Positions 1 to 21,560 of a DNA stretch of 32,297 nucleotides are shown here, one piece after another. A program made the translations under genes and the position numbers. Position 1 is the stretch's first letter, and every line of letters begins with the position of its first letter. Source of the stretch: a virus (Duplodnaviria; Heunggongvirae; Uroviricota; Caudoviricetes); the IMG/VR virus record IMGVR_UViG_2896589216_000003; one strand, written 5' to 3'. The notes beneath the pieces are model-generated. The model saw only the letters and a list, made by a program, of their open reading frames with translations. It searched no databases and was not told the origin of the DNA.

Positions 1-1053
1 TTACGGGGTAATGCCAACCGCTGCCGCCACTTTGTCGCCACTTGGCAGCGTTGCCAGAGGATTGAAACGGAGCGCCGTTTCCAGATGATCCAGTGCCAGA
101 TGTGCGTAACGCATAGTCATTTTTATATCGTGGTGTCCGAGAATTTTTTGTAAGGCCAGAATGTTTCCACCCGACATCATGAAGTGCGCCGCAAACGTAT
201 GGCGCAGAACGTGTGTGAGTTGACCGCGAGGGAGCACGATAGACGTTTTTTCCATCACGGATAAAAATTGAAAATAGCAGTCTGTGAAGAAATTGAACCC
301 ATCAAGCGCCATGATCTCTTCGTAAAGCTCTTTACTGATAGGGATGCTTCTGTTTTTCTTCCCCTTCGTTCTGACAAAGGTAATTCGGTATTTGGTCACC
401 TGTGAGCGGGTAAGATTTACGGCTTCACGCTAGCGTGCGCCTGTGCTTAAGCATATCTTAACTACCAGTGCCAGAATTGGGTCCTGACGTTTGCAATCAG
501 CCAGCAATTCAACAATCTGCTCATGGGTAAGCCATGCCATCTCTTTTTCTGCGATGGTGAATTTTCGCATGTTCTCCAGTGGGTTCGGATACGACCATTC
601 GCCCAGACGGGATAGTTCGCTAAAAACACTACTTAGATAGCTTTGCTCCAGGTTAATGGTGACCGGGCTTGCTCCTTTCTTCCATTTCTCGCTGAAGTAG
701 ATCTCGCCTGTCAGGCGTTTATCTCGATAGTGGGCAAACATTTTAGAGGTGAGATCGGTTGCAAGAGGATTGCCCAGAGCGTCAACCATCAACAGCAATT
801 TGTCATAGACATGCTGCCCAGCTGTCAGAGATTTACCATGTAGTTTGAACCATAGCTCAACCACGTCTTTCAGTGTTCGACGATCCACTGATTCACCCAG
901 CCAGGGCTTTGCTTCGGTTTCTTCCATCGTGTGGCGCTCAAAAGCCAGTGCTTCGCCTTTGGTGGCGAATTGTTTACGCACACGACGCCCACTTCGTCCG
1001 GCAGGGTAACATTCGCAAAGCCATTTCCCAGTGGTGAGTTTTCGTACTGCCAT
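1..1053 (-). pseudogene. int: P2-family tyrosine integrase interrupted by one in-frame TAG (430-432); 3' end (TAA) at window position 1-3
   Basis: ORFs 430..1209 and 1..399 are in the same frame. N-part ends ...LSTGAR then TAG; C-part has RHTFA...HHD...MRYAHL catalytic motifs. TAG sits where P2-type integrases have Trp (TGG). Start ATG 1051-1053 preceded by GGAGGG. Confidence 0.85.
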
Positions 1054-1241
1054 AAAAAATGCCCTCCAGTAGAGAGTATTTTTACTGTATGTATAACCAG
1101 TGTCAATGTATGAAATCCTACGACCATACATCTCACTGAAGCCATAATGAAGTTGGCTATTCTTTTTGCTATGTGAGCATGTAACTTTTGCGGTTAACCT
1201 GCGGCTCATTTTTATTTTAGACGCAGATATAAAAGCAAAAG

Positions 1242-1445
1242 TTATCGTGAGTTTTTAGTACAGATTTTTTTGGATTTACTAATAGTTCCATCATTGCAAA
1301 CAAATTTTCCATCGGAGGTACAGTGAGAGACACCTCCCTTTTTCCCAGAACAAGGATAATTTTTAGCATAGGTAGTTAGTGGGCTTAATAACAAAGAGCA
1401 TGATAAAGAGCATGATAAAACCACAAAAAATACTTTACCAAGCAT
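1242..1445 (-). CDS. small secreted cysteine-rich protein (signal peptide plus about 45-aa mature peptide with 4 Cys); moron between int and repressor
   Basis: Strong RBS GGAGGAAAC before ATG; hydrophobic N-terminus; AT-rich; perfect 12-bp tandem duplication at 1395-1418 inside the signal-peptide coding part (SCSLSCSL). Confidence 0.5.
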
Positions 1446-1460: not shown

Positions 1461-2036
1461 TTATCTAACATATTTAACTGTTAAACTTATAATTTTACCA
1501 ATTATTTCAATGTCTTCTATCTTACAGTCGAAGGCTCTGTTTCCACCCTCGACGAAGATTCTTCCACCGGGTAAACGAGTAATGTCACGGATCGTTACTT
1601 CGCCATCAATACTTATTACCCATTTACCATCACGTATGTCATCAAATTCTTTATCACAAATAAATTCAGAATTGTTATCTGTGATGACAAAAGGTTTTTT
1701 AAACGTAGAGGGTAGAAATCCCTTATCAAAAATATAAAAACCGTCTTCACGCAAGGCACCATCAGATAATACATATTTAGCAACTTCCATAGTATTTGTA
1801 TTACCTGAAGTTTGCTTTGAACCATGTCCGGTTGTGAGCCAATTAAGCGAGGTGCCCGTTTCAAGGGCGCACTGGATTACCCATTCTGCTGGGAATGAGT
1901 CACGCATGTAGCGTGTGGCGAGTGTACTTTTAGAGATTCCTAAATGATCGCACAACGCCTGTCGAGTCTTGAATCCATAAGCTTCTACCATGCGCTCTAT
2001 GGCGCCTCGTCCGCCTTTCTCCAAATTCATGGTCAC
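1461..2036 (-). CDS. phage CI-type immunity repressor (186 CI-like: N-terminal HTH plus C-terminal domain)
   Basis: 191 aa; HTH-like segment RQALCDHLGISKSTLATRY; position and orientation next to int and divergent from the Apl/Cox-position gene. Confidence 0.75.
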   Translation of the reverse strand: MTMNLEKGGRGAIERMVEAYGFKTRQALCDHLGISKSTLATRYMRDSFPAEWVIQCALETGTSLNWLTTGHGSKQTSGNTNTMEVAKYVLSDGALREDGFYIFDKGFLPSTFKKPFVITDNNSEFICDKEFDDIRDGKWVISIDGEVTIRDITRLPGGRIFVEGGNRAFDCKIEDIEIIGKIISLTVKYVR

Positions 2037-2403: not shown

Positions 2404-2589
2404 TTGACCATGTTTGATTACCAAGTTTCCAAACATCCATATTTTGATGAAGCCTGTCGTGCATTTGCACTGCGCCACAATCTGGTGCAACTGGCAGAAC
2501 GTGCAGGCATGAATGTGCAGATTCTGCGGAACAAGCTGAACCCAGCTCAGCCTCATTTATTAACCGCACCAGAAATCTGGCTGCTTTGA
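2404..2589 (+). pseudogene. cII-like regulator, N-terminal 61 codons only; truncated by IS911 left end
   Basis: ORF stop codon TGA (2587-2589) is the first bases of the IS911 terminal repeat TGAAGTGGCACACTG; synteny with 186-type early operon. Confidence 0.55.
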
Positions 2590-2726
2590 AGTGGCACACT
2601 GAATTTGGCCACCTGAACAGAGGTGATATGCTCACCTCAGAACAACACAGGTGCTCCAATGAAAAAAAGAAATTTTAGCGCAGAGTTTAAACGCGAATCC
2701 GCTCAACTGGTTGTTGACCAGAAATA

Positions 2727-2735
2727 CACGGTGGC
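2727..2735. repeat. 9-bp target-site duplication CACGGTGGC, left copy, of IS1 copy 1
   Basis: Identical 9-mer at 3504-3512 immediately after the IS1 right end. Confidence 0.9.
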
Positions 2736-2790
2736 GGTGATGCTGCCAACTTACTGATTTAGTGTATGATGGTGTTTTTGAGGTGCTCCA

Positions 2791-3066
2791 GTGGCTTCTG
2801 TTTCTATCAGCTGTCCCTCCTGTTCAGCTACTGACGGGGTGGTGCGTAACGGCAAAAGCACTGCCGGACATCAGCGCTATCTCTGCTCTCACTGCCGTAA
2901 AACATGGCAACTGCAGTTCACTTACACCGCTTCTCAACCCGGTACGCACCAGAAAATTATTGATATGGCCATGAATGGCGTTGGATGCCGGGCAACTGCA
3001 CGCATTATGGGCGTTAGCCTCAACACGATTTTACGTCACTTAAAAAACTCAGGCCGCAGTCGGTAA
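2791..3066 (+). CDS. insA: IS1 InsA
   Basis: 91 aa, [42 protein letters not shown]... Confidence 0.95.
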
Positions 3067-3110
3067 CCTCGCGCATACAGCCGGGCAGTGACGTCATCGT
3101 CTGCGCGGAA

Positions 3111-4604
<1,494 letters not shown>

Positions 4605-4612
4605 CCACTTCA

Positions 4613-4783
4613 ACCGGCGATGGACTGTGTCTGCTGACCAAACGGCTGGAGCGCGGCCGCTTCGCCTGGCCGTCAGCCCGGGATGGCAAAGTGTTCCTCA
4701 CACCGGCACAGCTGGCGATGCTCCTTGAAGGTATCGACTGGCGGCAGCCTAAAAGACTGCTTACGTCCCTGACTATGTTGTAA
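4613..4783 (+). pseudogene. IS66-family tnpB, C-terminal fragment
   Basis: Begins directly at the IS911 right end with no start codon of its own. Confidence 0.7.
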
Positions 4784-4831
4784 GCCTCTTTATCCTGGTC
4801 GACGCTGAATGAGCCTGGTAATATACCCGGT

Positions 4832-6369
4832 ATGAGCAGCTCACTTCCTGACGATATCAATGCACTGAAACGTCTCCTTGCCGAACAGGAGGCGCTGAAC
4901 CGTGCCCTGCTGGAAAAGCTGAACGAGCGTGAACGCGAAATAGACCATCTGCAGGCACAGCTGGATAAGCTGCGCCGGATGAACTTCGGCAGCCGCTCCG
5001 AAAAAGTCTCCCGTCGTATCGCACAGATGGAAGCTGACCTGAAGGCACTTCAGAAAGAAAGTGATACCCTTACCGGTCGGGTTGACGACCCGGCCGTGCA
5101 GCGCCCGCTGCGTCAAACCCGCACCCGCAAACCGTTCCCCGAATCACTCCCCGCGATGAAAAACGGCTGCTGCCGGCAGCGTCATGCTGCCCGGAATGTG
5201 GAGGCTCACTGAGCTATCCGGGTGAGGATGCCGCCGAACAGCTGGAGTTGATGCGCAGCGTCTTCCGGGTTATCCGGACTGTACGTGAAAAGCATGCCTG
5301 TACTCAGTGCGATGCCATCGTGCAGGCCCCCGCGCCTTCACGGCCCATCGAGCGGGGTATCGCAGGACCGGGGCTGCTGGCCCGCGTGCTGATCTCAAAG
5401 TATGCAGAGCACACCCCGCTGTACCGCCAGTCTGAAATGTACGGCCGCCAGGGCGTGGAGCTGAGTCGTTCACTGCTGTCGGGCTGGGTGGATGCATGCT
5501 GCCGGCTACTGTCACCGCTGGAAGAAGCGCTTCAGGACTATGTGCTGACTGACGGTAAGCTCCATGCTGATGACACGCCTGTCCCGGTGCTGTTGCCAGG
5601 CAATAAGAAAACGAAGACCGGGCGGTTATGGACCTACGTTCGTGACGACCGTAACGCCGGGTCAACGCTGGCGCCGGCGGTGTGGTTCGCTTACAGCCCG
5701 GACAGAAAAGGCATCCATCCGCAGACCCATCTTGCGGGGTTCAGTGGTGTACTGCAGGCGGATGCATACGCCGGGTTCAACGAGCTGTACCGGGATGGCC
5801 GGATAACGGAAGCCGCCTGTTGGGCTCACGCCCGCCGTAAAATCCACGATGTGCACGTTCGCACCCCGTCAGCCCTGACGGAGGAAGCGCTGAAACGGAT
5901 CGGCGAACTGTACGCCATCGAGGCAGAGATAAGGGGAATGACGGCGGAGCAGCGCCTTGCCGAACGTCAGTTGAAAACGAAACCGCTGCTGAAATCCCTG
6001 GAAAGCTGGCTGCGTGAAAAGATGAAAACCCTGTCGCGACACTCAGAACTGGCGAAAGCGTTCGCATACGCCCTGAACCAGTGGCCGGCGCTGACGTACT
6101 ATGCAGATGATGGCTGGGCTGAGGCGGACAATAATATCGCTGAAAATGCGTTGCGGATGGTCAGTCTGGGCCGCAAAAACTACCTGTTCTTCGGTTCGGA
6201 TCATGGAGGAGAGCGGGGAGCGCTGCTGTACAGCCTGATCGGGACGTGCAAACTGAACGGAGTGGAGCCAGAAAGCTACCTCCGCTATGTACTTGACGTC
6301 ATAGCCGACTGGCCGATAAACCGGGTCGGCGAACTGCTCCCCTGGCGCGTAGCACTGCCGACTGAATAA
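4832..6369 (+). pseudogene. IS66-family transposase TnpC, frameshifted at the C-run 5149-5152
   Basis: ORF 4832..5212 ends ...[16 protein letters not shown]; the other frame continues [23 protein letters not shown]... straight into ORF 5248..6369. Confidence 0.8.
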
Positions 6370-6407
6370 CACATCCCCGTCAATACGGTTCTTGCTGCAC
6401 GCTTACC

Positions 6408-7304
6408 ATTGACGGGCGTGGTCTGGCTGGCGAGATCAGCAAGGAAACGGGTAAATCCCTGCGTGATAACGCTGAATACGTTAATCCCTGGGCGTCTCTG
6501 CATCGTGTTCAGCAATTCCGCTTCTTTGGTATTCCAGGGCGTCAGGCTTACCGTGAACTGCGGTTGTTGGCTGGTCAGGCGGCAAGGCAGCAGGGTGACA
6601 AAAAAGCAGGTGCGCCGGTACTGGATAACCCGCGCCTTGATGCCATCCTGGCTGCTGCTGATGCTGGCTGTTTTGCCACCTACATTATGAGGCAGGGCGG
6701 CGTGCTGGTTCCTCGCAAATATCACTTGATCAGAACCGCTTATGAAATCAATGAAGAGCCGACCGCCTATGGCGATCACGGTATTCGTATTTATGGCATC
6801 TGGTCACCCATTGCAGAAGGCAAGATCTGCACTCATGCAGTGAAGTGGAAAATGGTTCGTAAAGCCGTTGACGTTCAGGAGGCGGCAGCCGACCAGGGCG
6901 CTTGCGCCCCTTGGACTCGTGGCAATAACTGTCCCCTTGCTGAAAATTTGAACCAACAGGAGAAAGATAAATCAGCTGATGGGAACCCCAGAACGGACAT
7001 TACCAGCATGGATGACAAGGAGTTGCACGATTACCTGCACAGTATGAGCAAAAAAGAGCGCCGGGAACTGGCAGCAAGGTTACGCCTGGTGAAACCGAAA
7101 CGGCGTAAAGACTACAAACAGCGAATTACAGACCATCAGCGACTGCAGCTCGTGTATGAGCTGAAGTCCAGAGGATTTGATGGCAGCGAGAAAGAGGTCG
7201 ATTTACTCCTTCGCGGAGGCAGTATTCCGTCAGGAGCAGGCCTGCGTATCTTCTATCGGAACCAGCGTTTGCAGGAAGATGATCAGTGGCGGAACCTGTA
7301 TTAA
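6408..7304 (+). pseudogene. phage early-region protein, C-terminal fragment, 5'-truncated by the IS66-family element (by synteny probably the replication gene A-type protein)
   Basis: Reading frame is open from the IS end with no start codon; lies between the early region and the tum-like cassette. Identity not verified. Confidence 0.35.
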
Positions 7305-7387
7305 TTACGCGGGTTAACAATTCGTGCTCTTAATAATACCAGGCATATCAGGCTGATGAACGTAAAAAAACGTTTTACATCAGTAAG

Positions 7388-7396
7388 ATTATTATA
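7388..7396. repeat. 9-bp target-site duplication ATTATTATA, left copy, of IS1 copy 2
   Basis: Identical 9-mer at 8165-8173. Confidence 0.9.
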
Positions 7397-7411
7397 GGTA
7401 ATGACTCCAAC

Positions 7412-7915
7412 TCACTGATAGTGTTTTATGTTCAGATAATGCCCGATGACCTTGTCATGCAGCTCCACCGATTTTGAGAACGACAGTGACTTCCGTCCCA
7501 GCCTTGCCAGATGTTGTCTCAGATTCAGATTATGTCGCTCAATGCGCTGAGTGTAACGCTTGCTGATAACGTGCAGCTTTCCCTTCAGGCGTGATTCATA
7601 CAGCGGCCAGCCATCCGTCATCCATACCACGACCTCAAAGGCCGACAGCAGGCTCAGAAGACGCTCCAGTGTGGCCAGAGTGCGTTCACCGAAGACGTGC
7701 GCCACAACCGTCCTCCGTATCCTGTCATACGCGTAAAACAGCCAGCGCTGACGTGATTTAGCACCGACGTAGCCCCACTGTTCGTCCATTTCAGCGCAGA
7801 CAATCACATCACTGCCCGGTTGTATGCGCGAGGTTACCGACTGCGGCCTGAGTTTTTTAAGTGACGTAAAACCGTGTTGAGGCCAACGCCCATAATGCGT
7901 GCACTGGCGCGACAT
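7412..7915 (-). CDS. insB: IS1 InsB frame (variant isoform)
   Basis: Identical to the copy-3 InsB ORF. Confidence 0.9.
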
Positions 7916-8109
7916 CCGACGCCATTCATGGCCATATCAATGATTTTCTGGTGCGTACCGGGCTGAGAGGCGGTGTAAGTGAACTGTAGTTGCCATGTTT
8001 TACGGCAATGAGAGCAGAGATAGCGCTGATGTCCGGCAGTGCTTTTGCCGTTACGCACCACGCCTTCAGTAGCGGAGCAGGAAGGACATCTGATGGAAAT
8101 GGAAGCCAC
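7834..8109 (-). CDS. insA: IS1 InsA (variant isoform)
   Basis: [37 protein letters not shown]... Confidence 0.9.
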
Positions 8110-8164
8110 GCAAGCACCTTAAAATCACCATCATACACTAAATCAGTAAGTTGGCAGCATTACC

Positions 8165-8173
8165 ATTATTATA
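8165..8173. repeat. 9-bp target-site duplication ATTATTATA, right copy, of IS1 copy 2
   Basis: Matches 7388-7396. Confidence 0.9.
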
Positions 8174-8175
8174 TA

Positions 8176-8191
8176 CTGTAAATATAAACAG
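8176..8191 (+). promoter_or_regulatory. LexA (SOS) box CTGTAAATATAAACAG upstream of the tum/DinI-like cassette
   Basis: Matches CTGT-N8-ACAG with an AT-rich centre (20-mer TACTGTAAATATAAACAGTG); overlaps a -10-like TATAAA; 44 bp before the ATG at 8235. Confidence 0.6.
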
Positions 8192-8234
8192 TGGTTATGC
8201 ATGCAGTATTGCGTGTGGTGTCATAGGAGGAAAG

Positions 8235-8423
8235 ATGCAGGACTATTTTTTGGAGTCTTTGAAGCTCCAGCGCATTGATTTTTTTCTTAAGCTTGTAGCG
8301 GCTAGTGAGTGTAGTGATGAAGAGAAGGGGCTGGCTCTGCAGTGGGTTTCTGAATTGACTGATGAACTCATGGCAAAAATCAGAACCCACGAATACAACC
8401 GCTCAATGGATGTCATCAGCTGA
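8235..8423 (+). CDS. small protein, first gene of the SOS-controlled cassette (possible antirepressor N-part, Tum-like by position)
   Basis: ATG 8235 preceded by AGGAGG; 62 aa; the longer upstream start (8151) would overlap the IS1 end and LexA box. Confidence 0.5.
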   Translation: MQDYFLESLKLQRIDFFLKLVAASECSDEEKGLALQWVSELTDELMAKIRTHEYNRSMDVIS

Positions 8424-8433
8424 GGTGACTTTT

Positions 8434-8667
8434 ATGCGCATTGAAATAATGATCGATAAAGAGCAGAAGATTAGCCAGTCTACCCTGGACGCTCTTGAAT
8501 CCGAGCTTTACCGCAATCTGCGCCCTCTGTATCCCAAAACGGTAATTCGTATCCGCAAAGGTAGCTCTAACGGTGTGGAACTTACCGGATTGCAACTGGA
8601 CGAAGAAAGAAAACAAGTGATGAAAATTATGCAGAAGGTGTGGGAAGACGACAGCTGGCTGCATTAA
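8434..8667 (+). CDS. DinI-family protein (186 Tum C-domain-like)
   Basis: MRIEIMIDKEQKISQSTLDALESELYRNL...KQVMKIMQKVWEDDSW aligns with DinI (MRIEVTIAK...DALAGELSRR...ILQETWESADDW); RBS GAGG before ATG 8434. Confidence 0.75.
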   Translation: MRIEIMIDKEQKISQSTLDALESELYRNLRPLYPKTVIRIRKGSSNGVELTGLQLDEERKQVMKIMQKVWEDDSWLH

Positions 8668-8802
8668 GAAACGTTGCTGGCGTCTGAACTAGCTTCTGGC
8701 GTCAGCAAGGTTGAACAACGAGCCCTTGCGAGGCGTTAGCTCTGTAGTGCATGTCTATGCCGCATGAGATCGCATGATCGTTTGAGGATCGTTTTTGCTA
8801 AG

Positions 8803-8827
8803 GCCCGCCAGAACTGGCGGGCTTTTG
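8803..8827 (+). terminator. rho-independent terminator after the DinI-like gene
   Basis: GCCCGCCA-gaac-TGGCGGGC stem followed by TTTTG. Confidence 0.65.
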
Positions 8828-8889
8828 CGTAGATCATGCAGGTGCATGAAAACCACTACATAAAGCGGGCAGGCGTGGCGGGGATACGA

Positions 8890-8917
8890 TTGCGCGCTAG
8901 GTATAAGTGTGTAAAAT
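8890..8917 (+). promoter_or_regulatory. candidate sigma70 promoter for the ATPase/HNH module
   Basis: TTGCGC ... TG-adjacent TAAAAT about 40 bp upstream of ATG 8960; weak, by eye only. Confidence 0.25.
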
Positions 8918-8959
8918 AATTCCAAAATAAATCATCACTAATGAAGTGAGAGGGTAATA

Positions 8960-10609
8960 ATGTTAGTCAAGAAAAATAAAAATTATAGTTTATATTTTTT
9001 AATTACAAATAATCAACAGATATCTGATTCTGGTAATTATATAAAAATAGTCCCATCAAGAAGCGATTGGAATGATTTTGGATATTTGAGTAGAGTCGAA
9101 ATATCTATTTTTAATAAAAAAGAGTGTAAGGATATAATTTCACTGAATGGTTATATTGGTTTTTTGAATTCAGAGGAGGAACGAAATGGAAAAGCAGAAC
9201 TGATAAGGCGAGTGAAAAAAAAGGAAGAATCTAATTTAAAGGATGAGGGGTTTAATGATTATTTTGTCATGCTTCAGGATATGAATAATTATCGAAGACT
9301 AGTAAGATTTTTTGGGGTGAATGAATCCAAATATATATTAAATTTCATTAATGATGTTGTTTCTAAGAAAAGTGACGCTAGTGCAGAGAATTTGAGGAAA
9401 AAAGCAATCTCTTCTGATATCTTTAATAAATCTTTCATTAGAGAGTCTGAGTCGTATTTTACTTTCAAAAATGCAGGAACAGTTCTTTCCGGTATTCAAT
9501 ATGAGGAGTTGGGTAATTTATCACAGCACATCAAGATTAGCTATTCGAATAAAGTTAATGAAGAAGATGTATCTTATGTTTTTAATTTTGATCACGAGCA
9601 TGATTTACCAAAAAGAATTTCCATAATTATAGGCGAGAATGGTGTAGGAAAAAGCCAAACGCTTAGAGAAATCGCATTGGCTGCGATTAAAGGAAAGGAT
9701 AATTTGGTGGCTGTAGTTGATTCTAACGGTGTGAGCATTGAAGAACGAATTCAAATTAGTAGGCTCATTGCTTTTTCTCCAACAAATGAAAGTAAGTGTT
9801 CATTTCCAACCGATAAAAGAATAAAATCATTGATATGGTACAAAAGATTGACTTTAAATCGTGAATCAAAATCCAAATTAAACTTGAATGATTTAATAGT
9901 GCAACTAGCGAGGAGTAACGACGCTATCGGCTATAATCAAAGGTGGAATATATTTGTTGATGCACTGAGTGTTCTAAATAGTAACAACGATTTAGTAATC
10001 AAATGTGGCGGTGAAAATTCACCATTTGTTAAATTAAATGAGCTTAATTCTCGAGGCGAAGAATCTAGACTATCATTATATTCTGAAATTATTCTCTCTG
10101 GCGAGCCTTTGAGGCTTATTGAAAATAAATGTTACCCTTTGAGTAGTGGGGAAATATCGTTTATTAAGTTTTGTGTACAAGTTTGTTTGTATATTGAGAA
10201 TGGGACTCTTCTATTAATAGATGAGCCAGAAACACATCTCCATCCTTCATTTATTAATAAATTTATGGCATTGCTTGATAATTTATTAGAAAAGACAGGC
10301 TCTTCAGCTATCATAGCAACGCATTCGGTTTATCTTGTTCGGGAGGTTTTTAAGGAGCAAGTGACAATACTCAGAAGACGAGATGATGGGGTAATTGTTA
10401 GCGAAAAACCGAGATTGAGTACTTTTGGGGCGAATATAGGAAATATCTCATATTTTGTTTTCGGTGAGAGTGAACCAACTCAAATTTTAAATAAAGTAAA
10501 AAACAATATAATTGCAAAGAATATGTCTTGGGATGATGTTGAATCTAAATATAGCGAGGACTTATCACTTAATGTATTAACTGCGTTGAGAAATGAAATG
10601 GGCAATTGA
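8960..10609 (+). CDS. ABC/OLD-type (AAA_21-like) ATPase with about 215-aa N-terminal domain of unknown function; candidate defence protein
   Basis: 549 aa; Walker A GENGVGKS (aa 225-232), signature-like LSSGE (394-398), Walker B/D-loop LLLIDEPETHLHP (417-429), H-loop ATHS (453-456); RBS GAGAGGG; strongly AT-rich. Confidence 0.8.
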   Translation: MLVKKNKNYSLYFLITNNQQISDSGNYIKIVPSRSDWNDFGYLSRVEISIFNKKECKDIISLNGYIGFLNSEEERNGKAELIRRVKKKEESNLKDEGFNDYFVMLQDMNNYRRLVRFFGVNESKYILNFINDVVSKKSDASAENLRKKAISSDIFNKSFIRESESYFTFKNAGTVLSGIQYEELGNLSQHIKISYSNKVNEEDVSYVFNFDHEHDLPKRISIIIGENGVGKSQTLREIALAAIKGKDNLVAVVDSNGVSIEERIQISRLIAFSPTNESKCSFPTDKRIKSLIWYKRLTLNRESKSKLNLNDLIVQLARSNDAIGYNQRWNIFVDALSVLNSNNDLVIKCGGENSPFVKLNELNSRGEESRLSLYSEIILSGEPLRLIENKCYPLSSGEISFIKFCVQVCLYIENGTLLLIDEPETHLHPSFINKFMALLDNLLEKTGSSAIIATHSVYLVREVFKEQVTILRRRDDGVIVSEKPRLSTFGANIGNISYFVFGESEPTQILNKVKNNIIAKNMSWDDVESKYSEDLSLNVLTALRNEMGN

Positions 10610-11474
10610 AATGAATAAATTAAAAAGACCTGTTTTTAAAGATTATTCTGCATTTAAAAAACTATCTGCAAATAAGAGATTAAAACATCATTCTGTTCTG
10701 AATGGACAGGATACATTTATACTTAATGCATATAGATCGTACATAAAGAATAAAGGGTATCTTAATGTCAATTCTTGTGGCGTATTGAGTAACAATATTG
10801 CTGAAGCTTTGAGATATTATTATAACAATCCCGCAAAGTGTTTATCTATAATTGATGATATAAGAGCAGCTAATTCTAACTCTCTATGTCCAATGTGTGG
10901 TTCAATGCATAGCGGGACTTTGGATCATGTTTTACCCAAGGAAAACTATCCAGAATTTTCTTTATTCACTAAGAATTTGGTTCCTGCTTGCAAATGTAAT
11001 ACTTTCAAAAGTACTACTATAGCTAATTCTGCAGGCCATCGGATGCTGCATCCATATTTTGATAATATATTAAAACAAAGATTAATATGTGCTAATTTTT
11101 CTAAATTAGGGCGAACACCTACAATTGATGTAAAAATCATAATTGACCCAATGTCACCAGAATATAACAATGTTAAGTATCATCTTGATAATGTTGTTAT
11201 CAAGAATAATATTAAGGGGTATTTGTCTGAACAATGGGAGTCGTTTTACTTATATCCTGAGCTTGTTATTAGAGGACTGAATAAGAGTCTTTCTACTTAT
11301 AGCGATGTATATGAGTTGTTGACTCGCGAGTTGTTGCTGTTGGATGAAAAACATAAAGGTAAAAATAATTGGAATTCGGTTTTTGTAGCTGGGTTAATTC
11401 GACCTGATGTGATTAGGTGGATACTCTGTGAATTACATTTAGGTAACAGAAGTCCAGACGGTCGTCTCATATGA
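10593..11474 (+). CDS. HNH / His-Me-finger nuclease-like protein, partner of the ATPase
   Basis: CPMC-x8-DH-x20-CKCN ... H-x3-H (aa 99-153); overlaps the upstream gene by 17 nt (alternative in-frame ATG at 10611); same AT-rich composition. Confidence 0.7.
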   Translation: MKWAIEMNKLKRPVFKDYSAFKKLSANKRLKHHSVLNGQDTFILNAYRSYIKNKGYLNVNSCGVLSNNIAEALRYYYNNPAKCLSIIDDIRAANSNSLCPMCGSMHSGTLDHVLPKENYPEFSLFTKNLVPACKCNTFKSTTIANSAGHRMLHPYFDNILKQRLICANFSKLGRTPTIDVKIIIDPMSPEYNNVKYHLDNVVIKNNIKGYLSEQWESFYLYPELVIRGLNKSLSTYSDVYELLTRELLLLDEKHKGKNNWNSVFVAGLIRPDVIRWILCELHLGNRSPDGRLI

Positions 11475-11581: not shown

Positions 11582-12615
11582 TTAAGTAGCTAGTTTATAA
11601 CTATCAAATTTAACAATGTTCTCACTTACCAATTTATTTATTTCCATCATTCTTTTTTGTAACGGTATTAACTCGTTACGTACAAACACCAGGCTCGCCT
11701 TCTCCACATCCCCAAACCCCCGACATTATTAGGCATAATCCCCATCATTTGCGGTGGCACACGATGCGCCGCCATCATGTCATCCCGGCTCACGTTCTTG
11801 ATGTTCAGAAACTCATCCTTCGCCGCGACTTCTGACAACGGGATGATCTGAAGCCCGTCCTTTTTGCCGTTAGGCGAGTACATAAACAGATTGCGGAAGT
11901 TACCTGGTCCTTTGGCGCTTTTCATCGCATTGCGGAGGTTGTTCACATCCTCCTGGTTTTGCGCGGCATCGGTCATGTACATGATGAAGCCTGCATGACT
12001 GCCGTTAATGTAATACTATCGGCGGAACAGCGTGGCGGACTCGTTGAGCAGGGCTGACGGAATGGCAGAAAGGTAACCTGGCAGGCCGTAGATCTCTTGG
12101 TTGATGTCCGGTTCCATCAGATGAAAGATGCTTCCTTTCGTGAACTGATACGGCTGCGTGGTCATGCCGTATTGCACAAACCAGTAGGTATCCAGGTCTA
12201 ATCCGCGTCGGGTGTATTTTGCCAGAGCAGGCTCAAGAGCGATGACCTCTCCGAACCGGTTTGTGCGTTTCTCCAGGTAAGCGTTACCAAATACCAGATA
12301 ATCCTGCACAAAACGTGAAAAAGCCTGCTGGCTGAGCAGCGGGTGAGGGATGTAGGTACTGATCAGAATGTTGCATTTCACCGCAATTGGTGAACTGTGA
12401 TGCACGGCGGCGCGGAAGGTGCGCGCCAGTCCGTCAAAACTCACTGGCGGCTCATACCAGCGATCTGTCTGTACGCATTCCACATAGTCCAGTAGTTCAC
12501 GGCGGTCCAGAACCGGAACGGGATCGCCGAAGCTGAATGCTTCGGCTGAAGTCTGGTTTTTATGCTGGGTCTGTTTCGTCGCCGCAGCGCGGTTCTTCTT
12601 ACTCTTTCCCATCAA
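11582..12615 (-). pseudogene. Q: portal protein (P2 gpQ-like) with in-frame TAG (12016-12018) and a 1-bp frameshift near 11714-11716
   Basis: N-part ...LNESATLFRR then TAG, continuing in the same frame (LYINGSHAGFIMY...); C-terminal ...PNNVGGLGMWRRR* shifts frame, the other frame gives GDVEKASLVFVRNELIPLQ... to stop at 11582. Confidence 0.8.
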
Positions 12616-19871: not shown

Positions 19872-20265
19872 ATTGCAGAAGGTGGACGACTGGCTGAGTG
19901 CATTATTGGCGAATCTGGAGCCAGCCGCAAGAAGCCGCATGATGCGCCAGCTGGCGCAGGAACTGCGCCGGACACAGCAGCAGAATATCAGGATGCAGCG
20001 CAATCCAGATGGCAGCAGTTATGAGCCGCGCAGGGTAACAGCACGCAGCAAAAAGGGGCGCATCAAACGTCAGATGTTTACAAAGCTGCGCACCACAAAA
20101 TACCTGAAAACTGCAGCCAGCGCCGATTCTGCCAGCGTACAGTTTGAAGGTAGGGTGCAGCGCATTGCCCGTATTCACCATTACGGCTTGAGTGATCGCG
20201 TCAGTCGAAAAGGTATTTATACCATCTATGCGAAAAGGCAGTTATTAGGTTTTAATGTCCGGTAA
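19864..20265 (+). pseudogene. S: tail completion protein, P2 gpS-like, 3'-truncated by IS1 copy 3
   Basis: Stop codon TAA (20263-20265) is formed by IS1 terminal bases; ...YAKRQLLGFNVR*. Confidence 0.7.
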
Positions 20266-20315
20266 TGCTGCCAACTTACTGATTTAGTGTATGATGGTGA
20301 TTTTAAGGTGCTTGC

Positions 20316-20591
20316 GTGGCTTCCATTTCCATCAGATGTCCTTCCTGCTCCGCTATTGAAGGCGTGGTGCGTAACGGCAAAAGAACTGCCGGACATCAGC
20401 GCTATCTCTGCTCTCATTGCCGTAAAACATGGCAACTACAGTTCACTTACACCGCCTCTCAGCCCGGTACGCACCAGAAAATCATTGATATGGCCATGAA
20501 TGGCGTCGGATGTCGCGCCAGTGCACGCATTATGGGCGTTGGCCTCAACACGGTTTTACGTCACTTAAAAAACTCAGGCCGCAGTCGGTAA
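20316..20591 (+). CDS. insA: IS1 InsA (variant isoform)
   Basis: [37 protein letters not shown]... Confidence 0.9.
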
Positions 20592-21013
20592 CCTCGCGCA
20601 TACAACCGGGCAGTGATGTGATTGTCTGCGCTGAAATGGACGAACAGTGGGGCTACGTCGGTGCTAAATCACGTCAGCGCTGGCTGTTTTACGCGTATGA
20701 CAGGATACGGAGGACGGTTGTGGCGCACGTCTTCGGTGAACGCACTCTGGCCACACTGGAGCGTCTTCTGAGCCTGCTGTCGGCCTTTGAGGTCGTGGTA
20801 TGGATGACGGATGGCTGGCCGCTGTATGAATCACGCCTGAAGGGAAAGCTGCACGTTATCAGCAAGCGTTACACTCAGCGCATTGAGCGACATAATCTGA
20901 ATCTGAGACAACATCTGGCAAGGCTGGGACGGAAGTCACTGTCGTTCTCAAAATCGGTGGAGCTGCATGACAAGGTCATCGGGCATTATCTGAACATAAA
21001 ACACTATCAGTAA
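20510..21013 (+). CDS. insB: IS1 InsB frame (variant isoform)
   Basis: 167-aa ORF identical to that of copy 2. Confidence 0.9.
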
Positions 21014-21023
21014 GTTGGCAGCA

Positions 21024-21560
21024 TTACCATGCAGCCCTCACAATATAGTTAAAAGCGACATTTCGTGGGCGTGTTTCATTCGCACCTGCAGGTTTAGTCG
21101 TTGCCGCAACAACACCACCCTCTGTAATAGCCGGGTTGGGAATTGGGTAATTATCGAAGTCAATGGCCGGAGACAGGGGCGTGATTTGTTTTAAAATCGT
21201 GGTGCCTGTAAAACTTTCCAGAGTCTGGTCGTTAGTTCGTGAAGTCCAGATTCCCCAATAGTGGTTATGACTGACAATCGCACCGTCCTGAAGCGTTAAT
21301 AATCCCCTTCCGTTATCCACTCCACGTCCGTCATCCCAGCCACGAATAAACTCACCGCGTAAATCAGGCAATTTATTTGTCGGGTAAGCCTTTGCCAGTT
21401 CCGGGTATTCTTCAGCAGAAAAAGCCGCACCATTGCATTTCAGCCAGCCTGTCGGCGGAGTGGCTGAAGGCCACGGAACAGGCACACCAACAGGTAATGC
21501 AGAGCCTTCTCCCAAACCAACGTTTAAGAAAATGCAGAGATAATGGCTAACTGGCATCAT
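21024..21560 (-). pseudogene. tail-fibre variable C-terminal cassette (inverted-orientation segment of a Gin/Pin-type shufflon), truncated by IS1 copy 3
   Basis: ...PVGVPVPWPSATPPTGWLKCNGAAFSAEEYPELAKAYPTNKLPDLRGEFIRGWDDGRGVDNGRG... conserved tail-fibre junction motif; ORF begins at the crossover-like site and runs into the IS1 end. Confidence 0.65.
21507..21532. promoter_or_regulatory. gix/hix/cix-like 26-bp imperfect palindrome: candidate invertase crossover site
   Basis: TTCTCCCAAACCAACGTTTAAGAAAA resembles gix (TTATCCAAAACCTCGGTTTACAGGAA); sits at the 5' end of the tail-fibre cassette next to the invertase gene. Confidence 0.5.

Follow-up and report, generated by a model that had tools for sequence, protein, structure and literature searches.

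Positions 8174-8667 of the 32,297-nt stretch of DNA that was analyzed (the window) very probably represent the SOS (tum) operon of a P2-family prophage of the Fels-2/186 type, with an IS1 element in its promoter. Two small proteins are predicted from this operon, a TumA-type antirepressor homologue (ORF1) and the DinI-family protein TumB (ORF2); this two-gene form of tum is the Fels-2/PSP3 variant and has already been described. New relative to the known tum systems is the IS1-split promoter with its replacement -35, as one strain-specific twist. The coordinates of the features are collected in Table 1.

Table 1. Coordinates of the tum operon, of the elements of its interrupted promoter and of the CI repressor gene in the window.
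Feature	Position	Strand	Remarks
CI repressor, 186-type, 189 aa, intact	1461-2030	-	Pfam: Phage_CI_repr, E 2.7e-33; Phage_CI_C, E 2.7e-29
Native tum -35, TTTACA, displaced	7374-7379	+	distance to its -10 increased by 768 bp
IS1 target-site duplication, left copy, 9 bp	7388-7396		ATTATTATA
IS1 copy 2, 768 bp	7397-8164	-	99.6% identical to an element annotated as IS1F in a phage record
insB	7412-7915	-	within IS1 copy 2
insA	7834-8109	-	within IS1 copy 2
insA-proximal inverted repeat (IRL)	8142-8164		within IS1 copy 2
Outward -35-like hexamer, TTGGCA	8151-8156	+	part of the IS1 inverted repeat; possible -35 for a hybrid promoter
IS1 target-site duplication, right copy, 9 bp	8165-8173		ATTATTATA; forms most of the promoter spacer
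LexA box 1	8174-8193	+	TACTGTAAATATAAACAGTG; presumed -10 (TACTGT) in its first six bases
LexA box 2	8189-8208	+	CAGTGGTTATGCATGCAGTA; 5-nt overlap with box 1; partly degenerate in the window lineage
RBS of ORF1, AGGAGG	8225-8230	+	
ORF1, 62 aa, TumA-type antirepressor homologue	8235-8423	+	ATG at 8235, stop at 8421-8423
ORF2, 77 aa, TumB, DinI-family	8434-8667	+	ATG at 8434, stop at 8665-8667
Terminator-like GC-rich hairpin followed by UUUU	8800-8829	+	-25.1 kcal/mol, z -4.98 (RNA fold)

Genome context

The prophage is located between rcdA and ybjL of a Shigella-type chromosome. A C-terminal fragment of the replication gene A ends at position 7304 and is followed by the cassette, and synteny with the intact relative is kept. 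In phage 186, which has this type of CI, p95-tum likewise comes directly after gene A. Along its whole length, the 186-type CI repressor of the window shares 99.5% identity with that of the intact relative; it is the presumed target of ORF1. The first-pass annotation of this DNA had described a CI-like repressor as adjacent to the cassette; the gene lies 6.1 kb upstream, in a gene order that is as in the intact relatives. A gene pair of the PDC-M01 (Septu-like) type is found downstream of ORF2.

The prophage is non-viable: int carries a nonsense codon, the region from cII to A is replaced by IS elements, the portal gene is frameshifted, and baseplate genes are deleted. It was dead before IS1 hit the tum promoter, and CI, Apl, TumA and TumB are its sole intact regulatory remnant. 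The IS1 event was therefore of little consequence for the phage, because functions for replication, integration and morphogenesis were already lost.

LexA operator

LexA box 1 is the sole site in the 32-kb window with no more than three mismatches to the 20-mer consensus, where none is expected by chance (100 shuffles). It is also the single match in the window to the pattern CTGT-N8-ACAG; this uniqueness adds little alone, because chance alone would give 0.47 matches to this looser pattern (at least one match in 36 of 100 shuffles). The sequence of box 1 is identical in Fels-2, E. coli HS, UPEC-245U and S. boydii Sb227. Phages 186 and PSP3 have LexA boxes of their own at the equivalent position, and box 1 of the window is placed as are the annotated LexA site and -10 of the 186 promoter p95. 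The near-consensus LexA box that had been noticed in front of the cassette, and its overlap with a -10-like hexamer, were confirmed; a second, overlapping box (box 2) had been missed.

Box 2 has seven mismatches to the consensus in the window and five in Fels-2, and relative to the Fels-2 and HS prophages it shows an extra change, from ACAG to GCAG. This change is older than the IS1 insertion, since it is common to the sister genomes with an empty site (below). By DNA search and alignment, the 39-nt operator was found to be alike to the double SOS box of colicin genes, with 36 of 39 positions identical for Fels-2 and 32 of 39 for the window. Box 2 of Fels-2 is identical to the colicin box 2: the colicin-type form, CAGTGGTTAT...ACAGTA, is complete in Fels-2 and has drifted to CAGTGGTTATGCATGCAGTA in the window. 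No paper was retrieved by full-text search with the string of colicin box 2. Judged by its sequence, the tum operator resembles the two overlapping SOS boxes of the colicin type, with a box 2 that is partly degenerate in the window, and LexA would be expected to bind there.

Predicted proteins

ORF1 is the 62-aa reading frame with an AGGAGG ribosome-binding site that had already been recognized in the first pass. It is 100% identical to a protein of UPEC-245U and 98% identical to Fels-2 STM2728 and to E. coli HS ECHS_RS04495. In a PHROG profile search, ORF1 matched phrog_698 (E 3.6e-38), a family listed by PHROGs under function unknown, and two families that are matched also by the N-terminus of Tum (E 2.4e-8 and 0.0022); conversely, residues 1-70 of 186 Tum matched the family of ORF1 (E 5.9e-6). 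Comparison of the ORF1 family with the Tum family by hhalign gave a probability of 95.4% (E 1.8e-8), with residues 2-44 on residues 2-44 and no gaps. Pairwise BLASTP of ORF1 gave no similarity to 186 Tum or PSP3 TumA, and the homology to Tum thus rests on profiles. At this level, homology of ORF1 to the N-terminal part of 186 Tum is supported.

A phmmer search of ORF1 against 1.8 billion representatives yielded 66 mostly small relatives, from which a diverse alignment was built, and zero full-length fused Tum proteins. ORF1 had no match in Pfam or PADLOC, and a sequence search of the PDB was empty even at E 10. The AlphaFold2 model of ORF1 is a two-helix hairpin (pLDDT 88), for which Foldseek against the PDB retrieved generic helical hairpins only, none with E <= 0.001; this search was uninformative on function. 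For the prophage DuoHS of E. coli HS, deletion of 'tum' (ECHS_RS04495) or a lexA(Ind-) allele abolishes the lysis induced by mitomycin C. The deletion establishes that the gene is required for induction and does not by itself demonstrate binding of CI by its product; for the window element, we infer an interaction of ORF1 with CI.

ORF2 matches the Pfam family DinI (PF06183) along the entire profile (positions 1-63 of 63; E 6.6e-23, 81.3 bits, cut-off 24.2) and, with residues 1-75, the structure of E. coli DinI (PDB 1GHH, E 2.7e-6). It is 100% identical to the DinI-family protein of Fels-2, 78% to TumB of PSP3 and 41% to the C-terminal half of 186 Tum. From its membership in the DinI family, ORF2 is expected to modulate RecA filaments. 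The alignment with DinI had been proposed in the first-pass annotation for an ORF of 78 aa; the family stands, and the length is 77 aa (78 codons with the stop). The proposal that the Tum function is split into two ORFs was upheld by alignment of both to 186 Tum, in which ORF2 matched pairwise and ORF1 by profiles only.

IS1 insertion and promoter elements

IS1 copy 2 is present in the window together with two other IS1 copies. Its insertion point is the 17-bp spacer of the tum promoter; it left the two LexA boxes and the two ORFs intact. The empty site is found in three near-identical genomes (flank identities of 100% and 99.96-99.98%), in which the two flanks overlap by exactly the 9 bp and one copy of ATTATTATA is present; the window sequence is placed next to S. 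boydii Sb227-like assemblies. The junction of IS1 and promoter has no exact match in species-representative genomes, and it is crossed by none of the best 40 E. coli matches listed. The distance between IS1 and the LexA box had been given as 11 bp, which holds for the CTG core; the distance to the 20-mer is 9 bp.

Where the promoter is uninterrupted (Fels-2, E. coli HS, UPEC-245U), TTTACA is located 17 bp upstream of TACTGT. This layout parallels the annotated p95 of 186, with TTCACA as -35, a distance of 18 bp, and TACTGT, the first 6 nt of its LexA box, as -10. In the window, the sequence at the -35 position is supplied by the end of IS1, as had been supposed: the native TTTACA is displaced, and TTGGCA is found at the equal distance of 17 bp from TACTGT. 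By MAFFT alignment, the IS1 hexamer falls on the column of the native TTTACA, and each of the two hexamers agrees with the -35 consensus in 5 of 6 bases. The inverted repeat that contains TTGGCA is bound by the IS1 protein InsA. The promoter has also lost an A-rich tract, originally upstream of the native -35 and now moved off by 768 bp.

An outward-directed -35 is known from the inverted repeat of IS1, and it forms hybrid promoters with a resident -10 when correctly spaced (PMC8764528; PMC9330008). The spacing required (16-18 bp) is present here at the level of sequence, and the TTGGCA/TACTGT pair may be active as such a promoter. A simple sigma-70 scanner predicted no plus-strand promoter, either in the IS1 allele or in the intact relative; it does not call the putative hybrid promoter because TACTGT, the presumed -10, agrees with the consensus in just 3 of 6 bases. 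An alternative -10, TATTAT (8167-8172), is without a usable -35 in either configuration. Transcription of IS1 itself runs away from the cassette, since insA and insB are on the minus strand.

Probable end of the operon

The terminator-like hairpin downstream of ORF2 (Table 1) is likely the end, or a partial end, of the SOS operon; the partial terminator t95a of 186 is located at the equivalent place. A second strong hairpin is predicted at about 8670-8712 (-23.5 kcal/mol, z -4.44), without a U-run. A hairpin at 8412-8429, spanning the ORF1 stop and the RBS of ORF2, was considered as a coupling element and dropped, as it is no stabler than shuffled sequence (z -0.94). Rfam gave nothing in the region 7300-9100.

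Comparison with known systems

The cassette is carried by about 8% of complete E. coli genomes. The window encodes the same two genes as Fels-2 (STM2728/STM2726.1) and has LexA box 1, the RBS and the position after gene A in common with both Fels-2 and DuoHS, as well as an early region with 186-type CI, CII and Fil. DuoHS in addition has the same rcdA-ybjL insertion site and a DinI-like neighbour beside tum. The window prophage differs from these two in its IS1-interrupted promoter with a replaced -35, in being defective, and in its PDC-M01 cargo.

In PSP3, tum is likewise split in two behind a LexA box and after gene A; tumA is annotated as 'similar to 5' end 186 tum; UV induction of prophage', with tumB beside it. 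PSP3 TumA is about 22% identical to ORF1, and the two families (phrog_1993 and phrog_698, respectively) are linked at profile level only. The split of tum is not new; it is described as known in PMC3121763, where antirepressor activity is attributed to the upstream PSP3 gene by way of a personal communication cited second-hand. PSP3 and 186 have one LexA box each, whereas the window has two.

Phage 186 resembles the window in the order of an antirepressor part and a DinI-like part, and in a LexA box over a TACTGT -10; in 186, however, both parts are fused to a Tum protein of 146 aa, to residues 1-70 of which ORF1 is about 20% identical. The DinI-like part is also made alone in 186 from an internal GTG start (Tum95.5), and the 186 operon continues with a partial terminator followed by a variable gene. 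The 186 record annotates Tum as an inhibitor of DNA binding by CI.

The genes for colicin N and for tRNase-colicins resemble the window in their upstream operator, whereas their core promoters and downstream genes are unrelated. The double SOS box of colicin genes binds two LexA dimers, and colicin promoters showed no detectable basal expression (PMC2994835). The IS1 hybrid promoters of bla-TEM, acrEF and afaA combine an outward IS1 -35 with a resident -10, as in the window geometry; unlike these, the insertion in the window did not switch on a silent gene but exchanged one -35 for another of similar quality, and the resident -10 is inside a LexA operator.

Proposed function and alternatives

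In the intact relatives, a weak sigma-70 promoter (TTTACA, 17 bp, TACTGT) would be covered by two overlapping LexA boxes, and cleavage of LexA after DNA damage would allow the two small proteins, TumA and TumB, to be made. TumA, as a 62-aa helical hairpin, would bind the 186-type CI and remove it from its operators, which would open lytic development, and the DinI-like TumB may modulate the activity of the RecA filament and hence the SOS signal. With IS1 in the spacer, the native -35 and the A-rich tract have been moved by 768 bp, and TTGGCA would have taken over at 17 bp. The likeliest outcome, which we hold with middling confidence, is a hybrid promoter that is still repressed by LexA, is changed in strength, and is possibly also sensitive to InsA.

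That IS1 instead killed the promoter and left the cassette as a silent relic in a decaying prophage, with ORFs that are intact from recency alone, is possible and in our view somewhat doubtful. Silencing would fit the 768-bp displacement of the native -35 and upstream A-tract, the weak -10 with no consensus-like plus-strand promoter detected, and the many other IS-mediated lesions in the prophage; the insertion is absent from the near-identical sisters and so is recent, which left no time for decay of the ORFs, and the hybrid -35 could be occluded by InsA, which would be supplied by the numerous IS1 copies in genomes of this kind. On the other hand, TTGGCA is as close to the consensus as the native hexamer at the same spacing, and functional IS1 hybrid promoters are documented in exactly this geometry (PMC8764528; PMC9330008). 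A constitutive, LexA-independent cassette, through read-out transcription from IS1 or a strong promoter that escapes the operator, is improbable: the orientation of insA and insB directs transcription away from the cassette, and both boxes are at or downstream of the presumed -10, so that a promoter with the IS1 -35 would still be covered. Upstream IS insertions do often activate genes (PMC8764528; PMC9330008), and box 2 is weakened in the window lineage, but that change predates the insertion.

There is little likelihood, too, that the remnant of CI, TumA and TumB has been kept and re-wired, with a working, SOS-inducible and InsA-tuned IS1 promoter and products that serve the host. Were it so, TumB would be an extra DinI for the host, TumA a trans-acting inducer of incoming or co-resident Fels-2-type phages, and partial read-through would put the PDC-M01 defence genes under SOS control, as for orf97 in 186. 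It is very unlikely that ORF1 is an unrelated small protein and the cassette a phage-borne dinI with a passenger gene. The missing Pfam family and BLAST similarity to Tum, the PHROGs listing and an odd UniRef name would suit such a passenger; the in-register profile match to Tum 2-44, PHROG matches in both directions, a gene position and operon partner that are conserved across relatives, and the block of prophage SOS induction upon deletion of the 98%-identical HS gene argue against it and for the TumA-type assignment.

Significance and annotation

The finding is of little weight beyond annotation. The IS1 event represents a natural swap of the -35, with identical spacing, in an SOS promoter for which a near-isogenic empty-site allele exists, and this allele pair would lend itself to a simple test of IS1 hybrid promoters and of dual control by InsA and LexA. 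The double operator common to Fels-2-type tum and colicin genes hints at the transfer of a tight operator module between plasmids and phages, and this module could help to explain a low spontaneous induction of Fels-2-type prophages.

The RefSeq records inspected list the 62-aa gene as 'hypothetical protein'; a suitable name for its product is TumA-type antirepressor of Fels-2-like prophages. A relative that is 89% identical to ORF1 bears the UniRef name 'levan regulatory protein'.

The tumA-tumB operon

The cassette, composed of a TumA-type gene (ORF1) and a DinI-family (TumB) gene (ORF2), can be assigned by sequence comparison to the known Fels-2/PSP3-type tumA-tumB SOS operon; what sets this locus apart is only that IS1 recently inserted into a Shigella-type prophage that was already dead, by which the native -35 element appears to have been exchanged for one from IS1 with the spacing unchanged (candidate hybrid promoter).

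Features of the cassette and the surrounding prophage (window coordinates unless a comparison locus, L, is named)
Feature	Coordinates	Strand	Remarks
int	1-1053	-	in-frame stop at 430-432
CI repressor	1461-2030	-	intact; both 186-type CI Pfam domains
IS-derived stretch	2587-6406		IS1, IS911, ISEc22 material
IS1 copy 1	2736-3503		flanked by CACGGTGGC
Native -35, TTTACA	7374-7379
IS1 copy 2	7397-8164	-	768 bp; insA and insB on minus strand
IS1-borne -35-like hexamer, TTGGCA	8151-8156		from IS1 inverted repeat
tum operator, similar to colicin SOS box	8170-8211; L003 2236-2285; L017 and L018 ~1201-1245		36/39; Fels-2-type
LexA box 1	8174-8193		TACTGTAAATATAAACAGTG
LexA box 2	8189-8208		overlaps box 1
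RBS AGGAGG	8225-8230		before ORF1
ORF1	8235-8423		62 codons
ORF2	8434-8667		77 codons; starts ten bases past ORF1 stop
Strong hairpin	~8670-8712		3' of ORF2; -23.5 kcal/mol
Strong hairpin, then UUUU	8800-8829		3' of ORF2; -25.1 kcal/mol
Candidate anti-phage gene pair	8960-11474	+	between DinI-like and portal genes
Portal gene (Q)	11585-12612	-	frameshifted near 11710-11719
IS1, third copy	20261-21028		opposite orientation to copy 2
Inverted segment	21029-21523		495 bp; adjoins third IS1

ORF2 matches the whole Pfam profile PF06183 (DinI; E 6.6e-23) and the solved structure of E. coli DinI (1GHH; E 2.7e-6). Its identity is 100% with the DinI-family protein from Salmonella phage Fels-2, 78% with PSP3 TumB and 41% with the C-terminal half of 186 Tum. 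For ORF1 no Pfam family was found, and pairwise BLASTP detected no similarity to 186 Tum or PSP3 TumA; its likeness to Tum is apparent with profile methods. ORF1 falls into phrog_698 (E 3.6e-38), with further matches to phrog_8554 (E 2.4e-8) and phrog_1993 (E 0.0022), the latter defined by PSP3 TumA, and residues 1-70 of 186 Tum match the same three profiles (phrog_698: E 5.9e-6, positions 6-44 on 6-44). Alignments were built for the ORF1 family (29 sequences, identity down to 32%) and the Tum family, and hhalign placed positions 2-44 of one on 2-44 of the other without gaps (95.4% probability, E 1.8e-8); a common pattern, (Q/E)R(I/V)x(L/M)xxRL(V/T)AxxxCxxxx(K/R)E(L/I)AL, is visible by eye. 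An AlphaFold2 model of ORF1 is a two-helix hairpin (pLDDT 88), for which Foldseek returned nothing specific. A relative 89% identical to ORF1 carries the UniRef label 'Levan regulatory protein'.

The first-pass annotation had proposed a Tum-like antirepressor module split over two ORFs, the first of 62 aa with an AGGAGG ribosome-binding site and the second a DinI-like protein of 78 aa. The split module is supported by the ORF1 profile match and the DinI/TumB match of ORF2, and the first ORF and its RBS were found as described; the family of the second ORF stands, its length does not (77 codons), and alignment to 186 Tum holds pairwise for ORF2 and at the profile level for ORF1.

The two-gene split of tum is already in the literature (Lemire et al., PMC3121763), where antirepressor activity is ascribed, on the strength of a personal communication, to the upstream gene of PSP3. 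The PSP3 record describes tumA as 'similar to 5' end 186 tum; UV induction of prophage' and tumB as 'similar to dinI and 3' end of 186 tum'. In 186, p95-tum lies in the equivalent place, directly past gene A; the GenBank entry for 186 marks a LexA site, the first six bases of which (TACTGT) are the -10, and states that Tum 'inhibits CI DNA binding'. 186 also yields the DinI-like part alone, from an internal GTG start (Tum95.5); in function, the split and fused forms are close. Prophage DuoHS of E. coli HS has the identical rcdA-ybjL insertion site, and its 'tum' (ECHS_RS04495), a 62-aa gene 5' of the DinI-like gene, is 98% identical to ORF1; deletion of this gene abolished mitomycin C-induced lysis, as did lexA(Ind-) (PMC12055606). 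The cassette is widespread: a query that starts within IS1 and runs past the cassette downstream was covered to at least 80% in 447 of 5,426 complete E. coli genomes. Among sequenced phages, the two-gene version occurs no less often than the fusion.

The LexA operator

The near-consensus LexA box claimed earlier is present: box 1 is the sole site with no more than three mismatches to the LexA consensus in the 32,297 bp scanned (0 expected from 100 dinucleotide-preserving shuffles). It is also the single CTGT-N8-ACAG site of the window, a uniqueness that adds little because 0.47 such sites are expected by chance. Box 2 has diverged to 7 mismatches from the consensus in the lineage of the window; among them is a change of ACAG to GCAG at 8203 that is also found in near-identical sister genomes with an empty IS1 site.

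The operators of 186 and PSP3 have a single LexA box each, in contrast to the double box of the Fels-2 type. A 50-nt Fels-2 promoter probe matched 1,105 plasmid records, for the most part from small mobilizable plasmids, and in the two records inspected the match lay about 40 bp 5' of a colicin N gene or a tRNase-type colicin gene. The colicin double SOS box and the Fels-2 operator are identical at 36 of 39 aligned positions, and box 2 (CAGTGGTTATATGTACAGTA) is identical in both, which suggests an operator module common to colicin plasmids and P2-family phages and moving between them. In colicin operons such overlapping boxes are bound by two LexA dimers (PMC2994835).

Some relatives with intact gene A (L008 and L016, near 2215) have TGCTGT instead of TACTGT at the -10/LexA box, which costs the presumed -10 its second-position A and leaves CTGT, the core of the LexA half-site, in place; in another (L011, near 2215) the box centre AAATAT is changed to AAGTAT. 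Both variants may be promoter-down changes that lower inducibility.

IS1 insertion in the promoter

The uninterrupted promoter of Fels-2, HS, UPEC-245U and S. boydii Sb227 (cgTTTTACAtcagtaagattattataTACTGTAAATATAAACAGTG) comprises TTTACA, 17 bp and TACTGT, comparable to p95 of 186 (TTCACA, 18 bp, TACTGT). In the window the spacer is interrupted by IS1 copy 2, flanked by a 9-bp direct repeat (ATTATTATA), and the native -35 with the preceding A-rich tract is displaced 768 bp farther off. Between the IS1-borne TTGGCA and TACTGT lie 8 bases of IS1 and the 9-bp duplication, a 17-bp spacer as in the native promoter; MAFFT likewise aligned the IS1 end on the native -35, in agreement with the earlier proposal that IS1 now supplies this position. 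The proposed distance of 11 bp from IS1 to the box is correct when counted to the CTG core; for the quoted 20-mer it is 9 bp.

A hybrid promoter that is still LexA-controlled appears somewhat more likely than a promoter silenced by the insertion. Silencing would be compatible with a simple consensus promoter scanner recognising neither the IS1 nor the intact allele; against it stand TTGGCA at 17 bp from TACTGT and documented cases in which the outward -35 of the IS1 inverted repeat formed hybrid promoters at correct -10 spacing (PMC8764528; also PMC9330008, there citing Prentki et al. 1986). The hybrid promoter is preferred also because insA and insB face away from the cassette, which makes read-out transcription into it unlikely, and because both LexA boxes are still at or downstream of the -10. 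InsA binds IS1 ends, and thus the hybrid promoter might be repressed by InsA.

Prophage context and timing of the insertion

The window is a P2-family prophage. Its intact relative in E. coli UPEC-245U (~99.2-99.9% identical over aligned segments) lies between rcdA and ybjL, with the order int, CI, apl-like, CII, fil, several small genes, dam, A, the 62-aa gene, DinI-like, AAA ATPase and HNH endonuclease, Q, P, O, N and the rest. In the window CI, the apl-like gene, ORF1 and ORF2 are intact. The int gene is a pseudogene because of an in-frame stop at codon 208 (context STGAR*REA); cII is truncated at residue 59, and from that point to A residue 505 the prophage sequence has given way to insertion-sequence material, including IS1 copy 1 (just 91% identical to copy 2), IS911-like sequence and ISEc22 (IS66-family; transposase split into 126 aa and 373 aa). 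The portal gene gave two tblastn pieces in different frames. Relative to the UPEC-245U prophage, baseplate and tail-fibre genes amounting to ~6 kb have been lost or inverted, in association with the third IS1 (99.2% identical to copy 2).

On the two sides of IS1 copy 2, assemblies CP026807, CP045784 and CP026823 match the window at 100% and 99.96-99.98% identity; their site is empty, with a 9-bp flank overlap corresponding to the duplication; the insertion is therefore recent. Since these three already have ISEc22 in gene A, it also postdates the loss of replication. Among the best 40 E. coli matches listed, none crosses the IS1 junction and all start at window 8165; an exact junction search of species-representative genomes gave no match.

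The hairpins past ORF2 resemble t95a, a partial terminator in 186, which the 186 SOS transcript passes into orf97, a gene blocking 186 infection; in the window the slot of orf97 is filled by a Septu-like ATPase and nuclease pair (PADLOC PDC-M01A/B). This candidate anti-phage system consists of an AAA_21/AAA_15 ATPase (549 aa) and a 293-aa ORF whose counterpart in the relative is annotated as HNH endonuclease; in PADLOC the pair matches PDC-M01A (E 3e-55) and PDC-M01B (E 1e-33) best and Septu PtuA more weakly. The ATPase gene is present in assemblies including S. boydii Sb227 (CP000036). A sister genome (CP026840.1; L015, 2137-2904) has an independent IS1 between the DinI-like and ATPase genes (equivalent to window 8864-8873), so this short AT-rich region has taken more than one IS1 insertion. 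A 100%-identical ORF1 also occurs in another record, where the upstream sequence diverges from ~18 nt before the ATG, hinting that the ORF1 promoter was rearranged again elsewhere.
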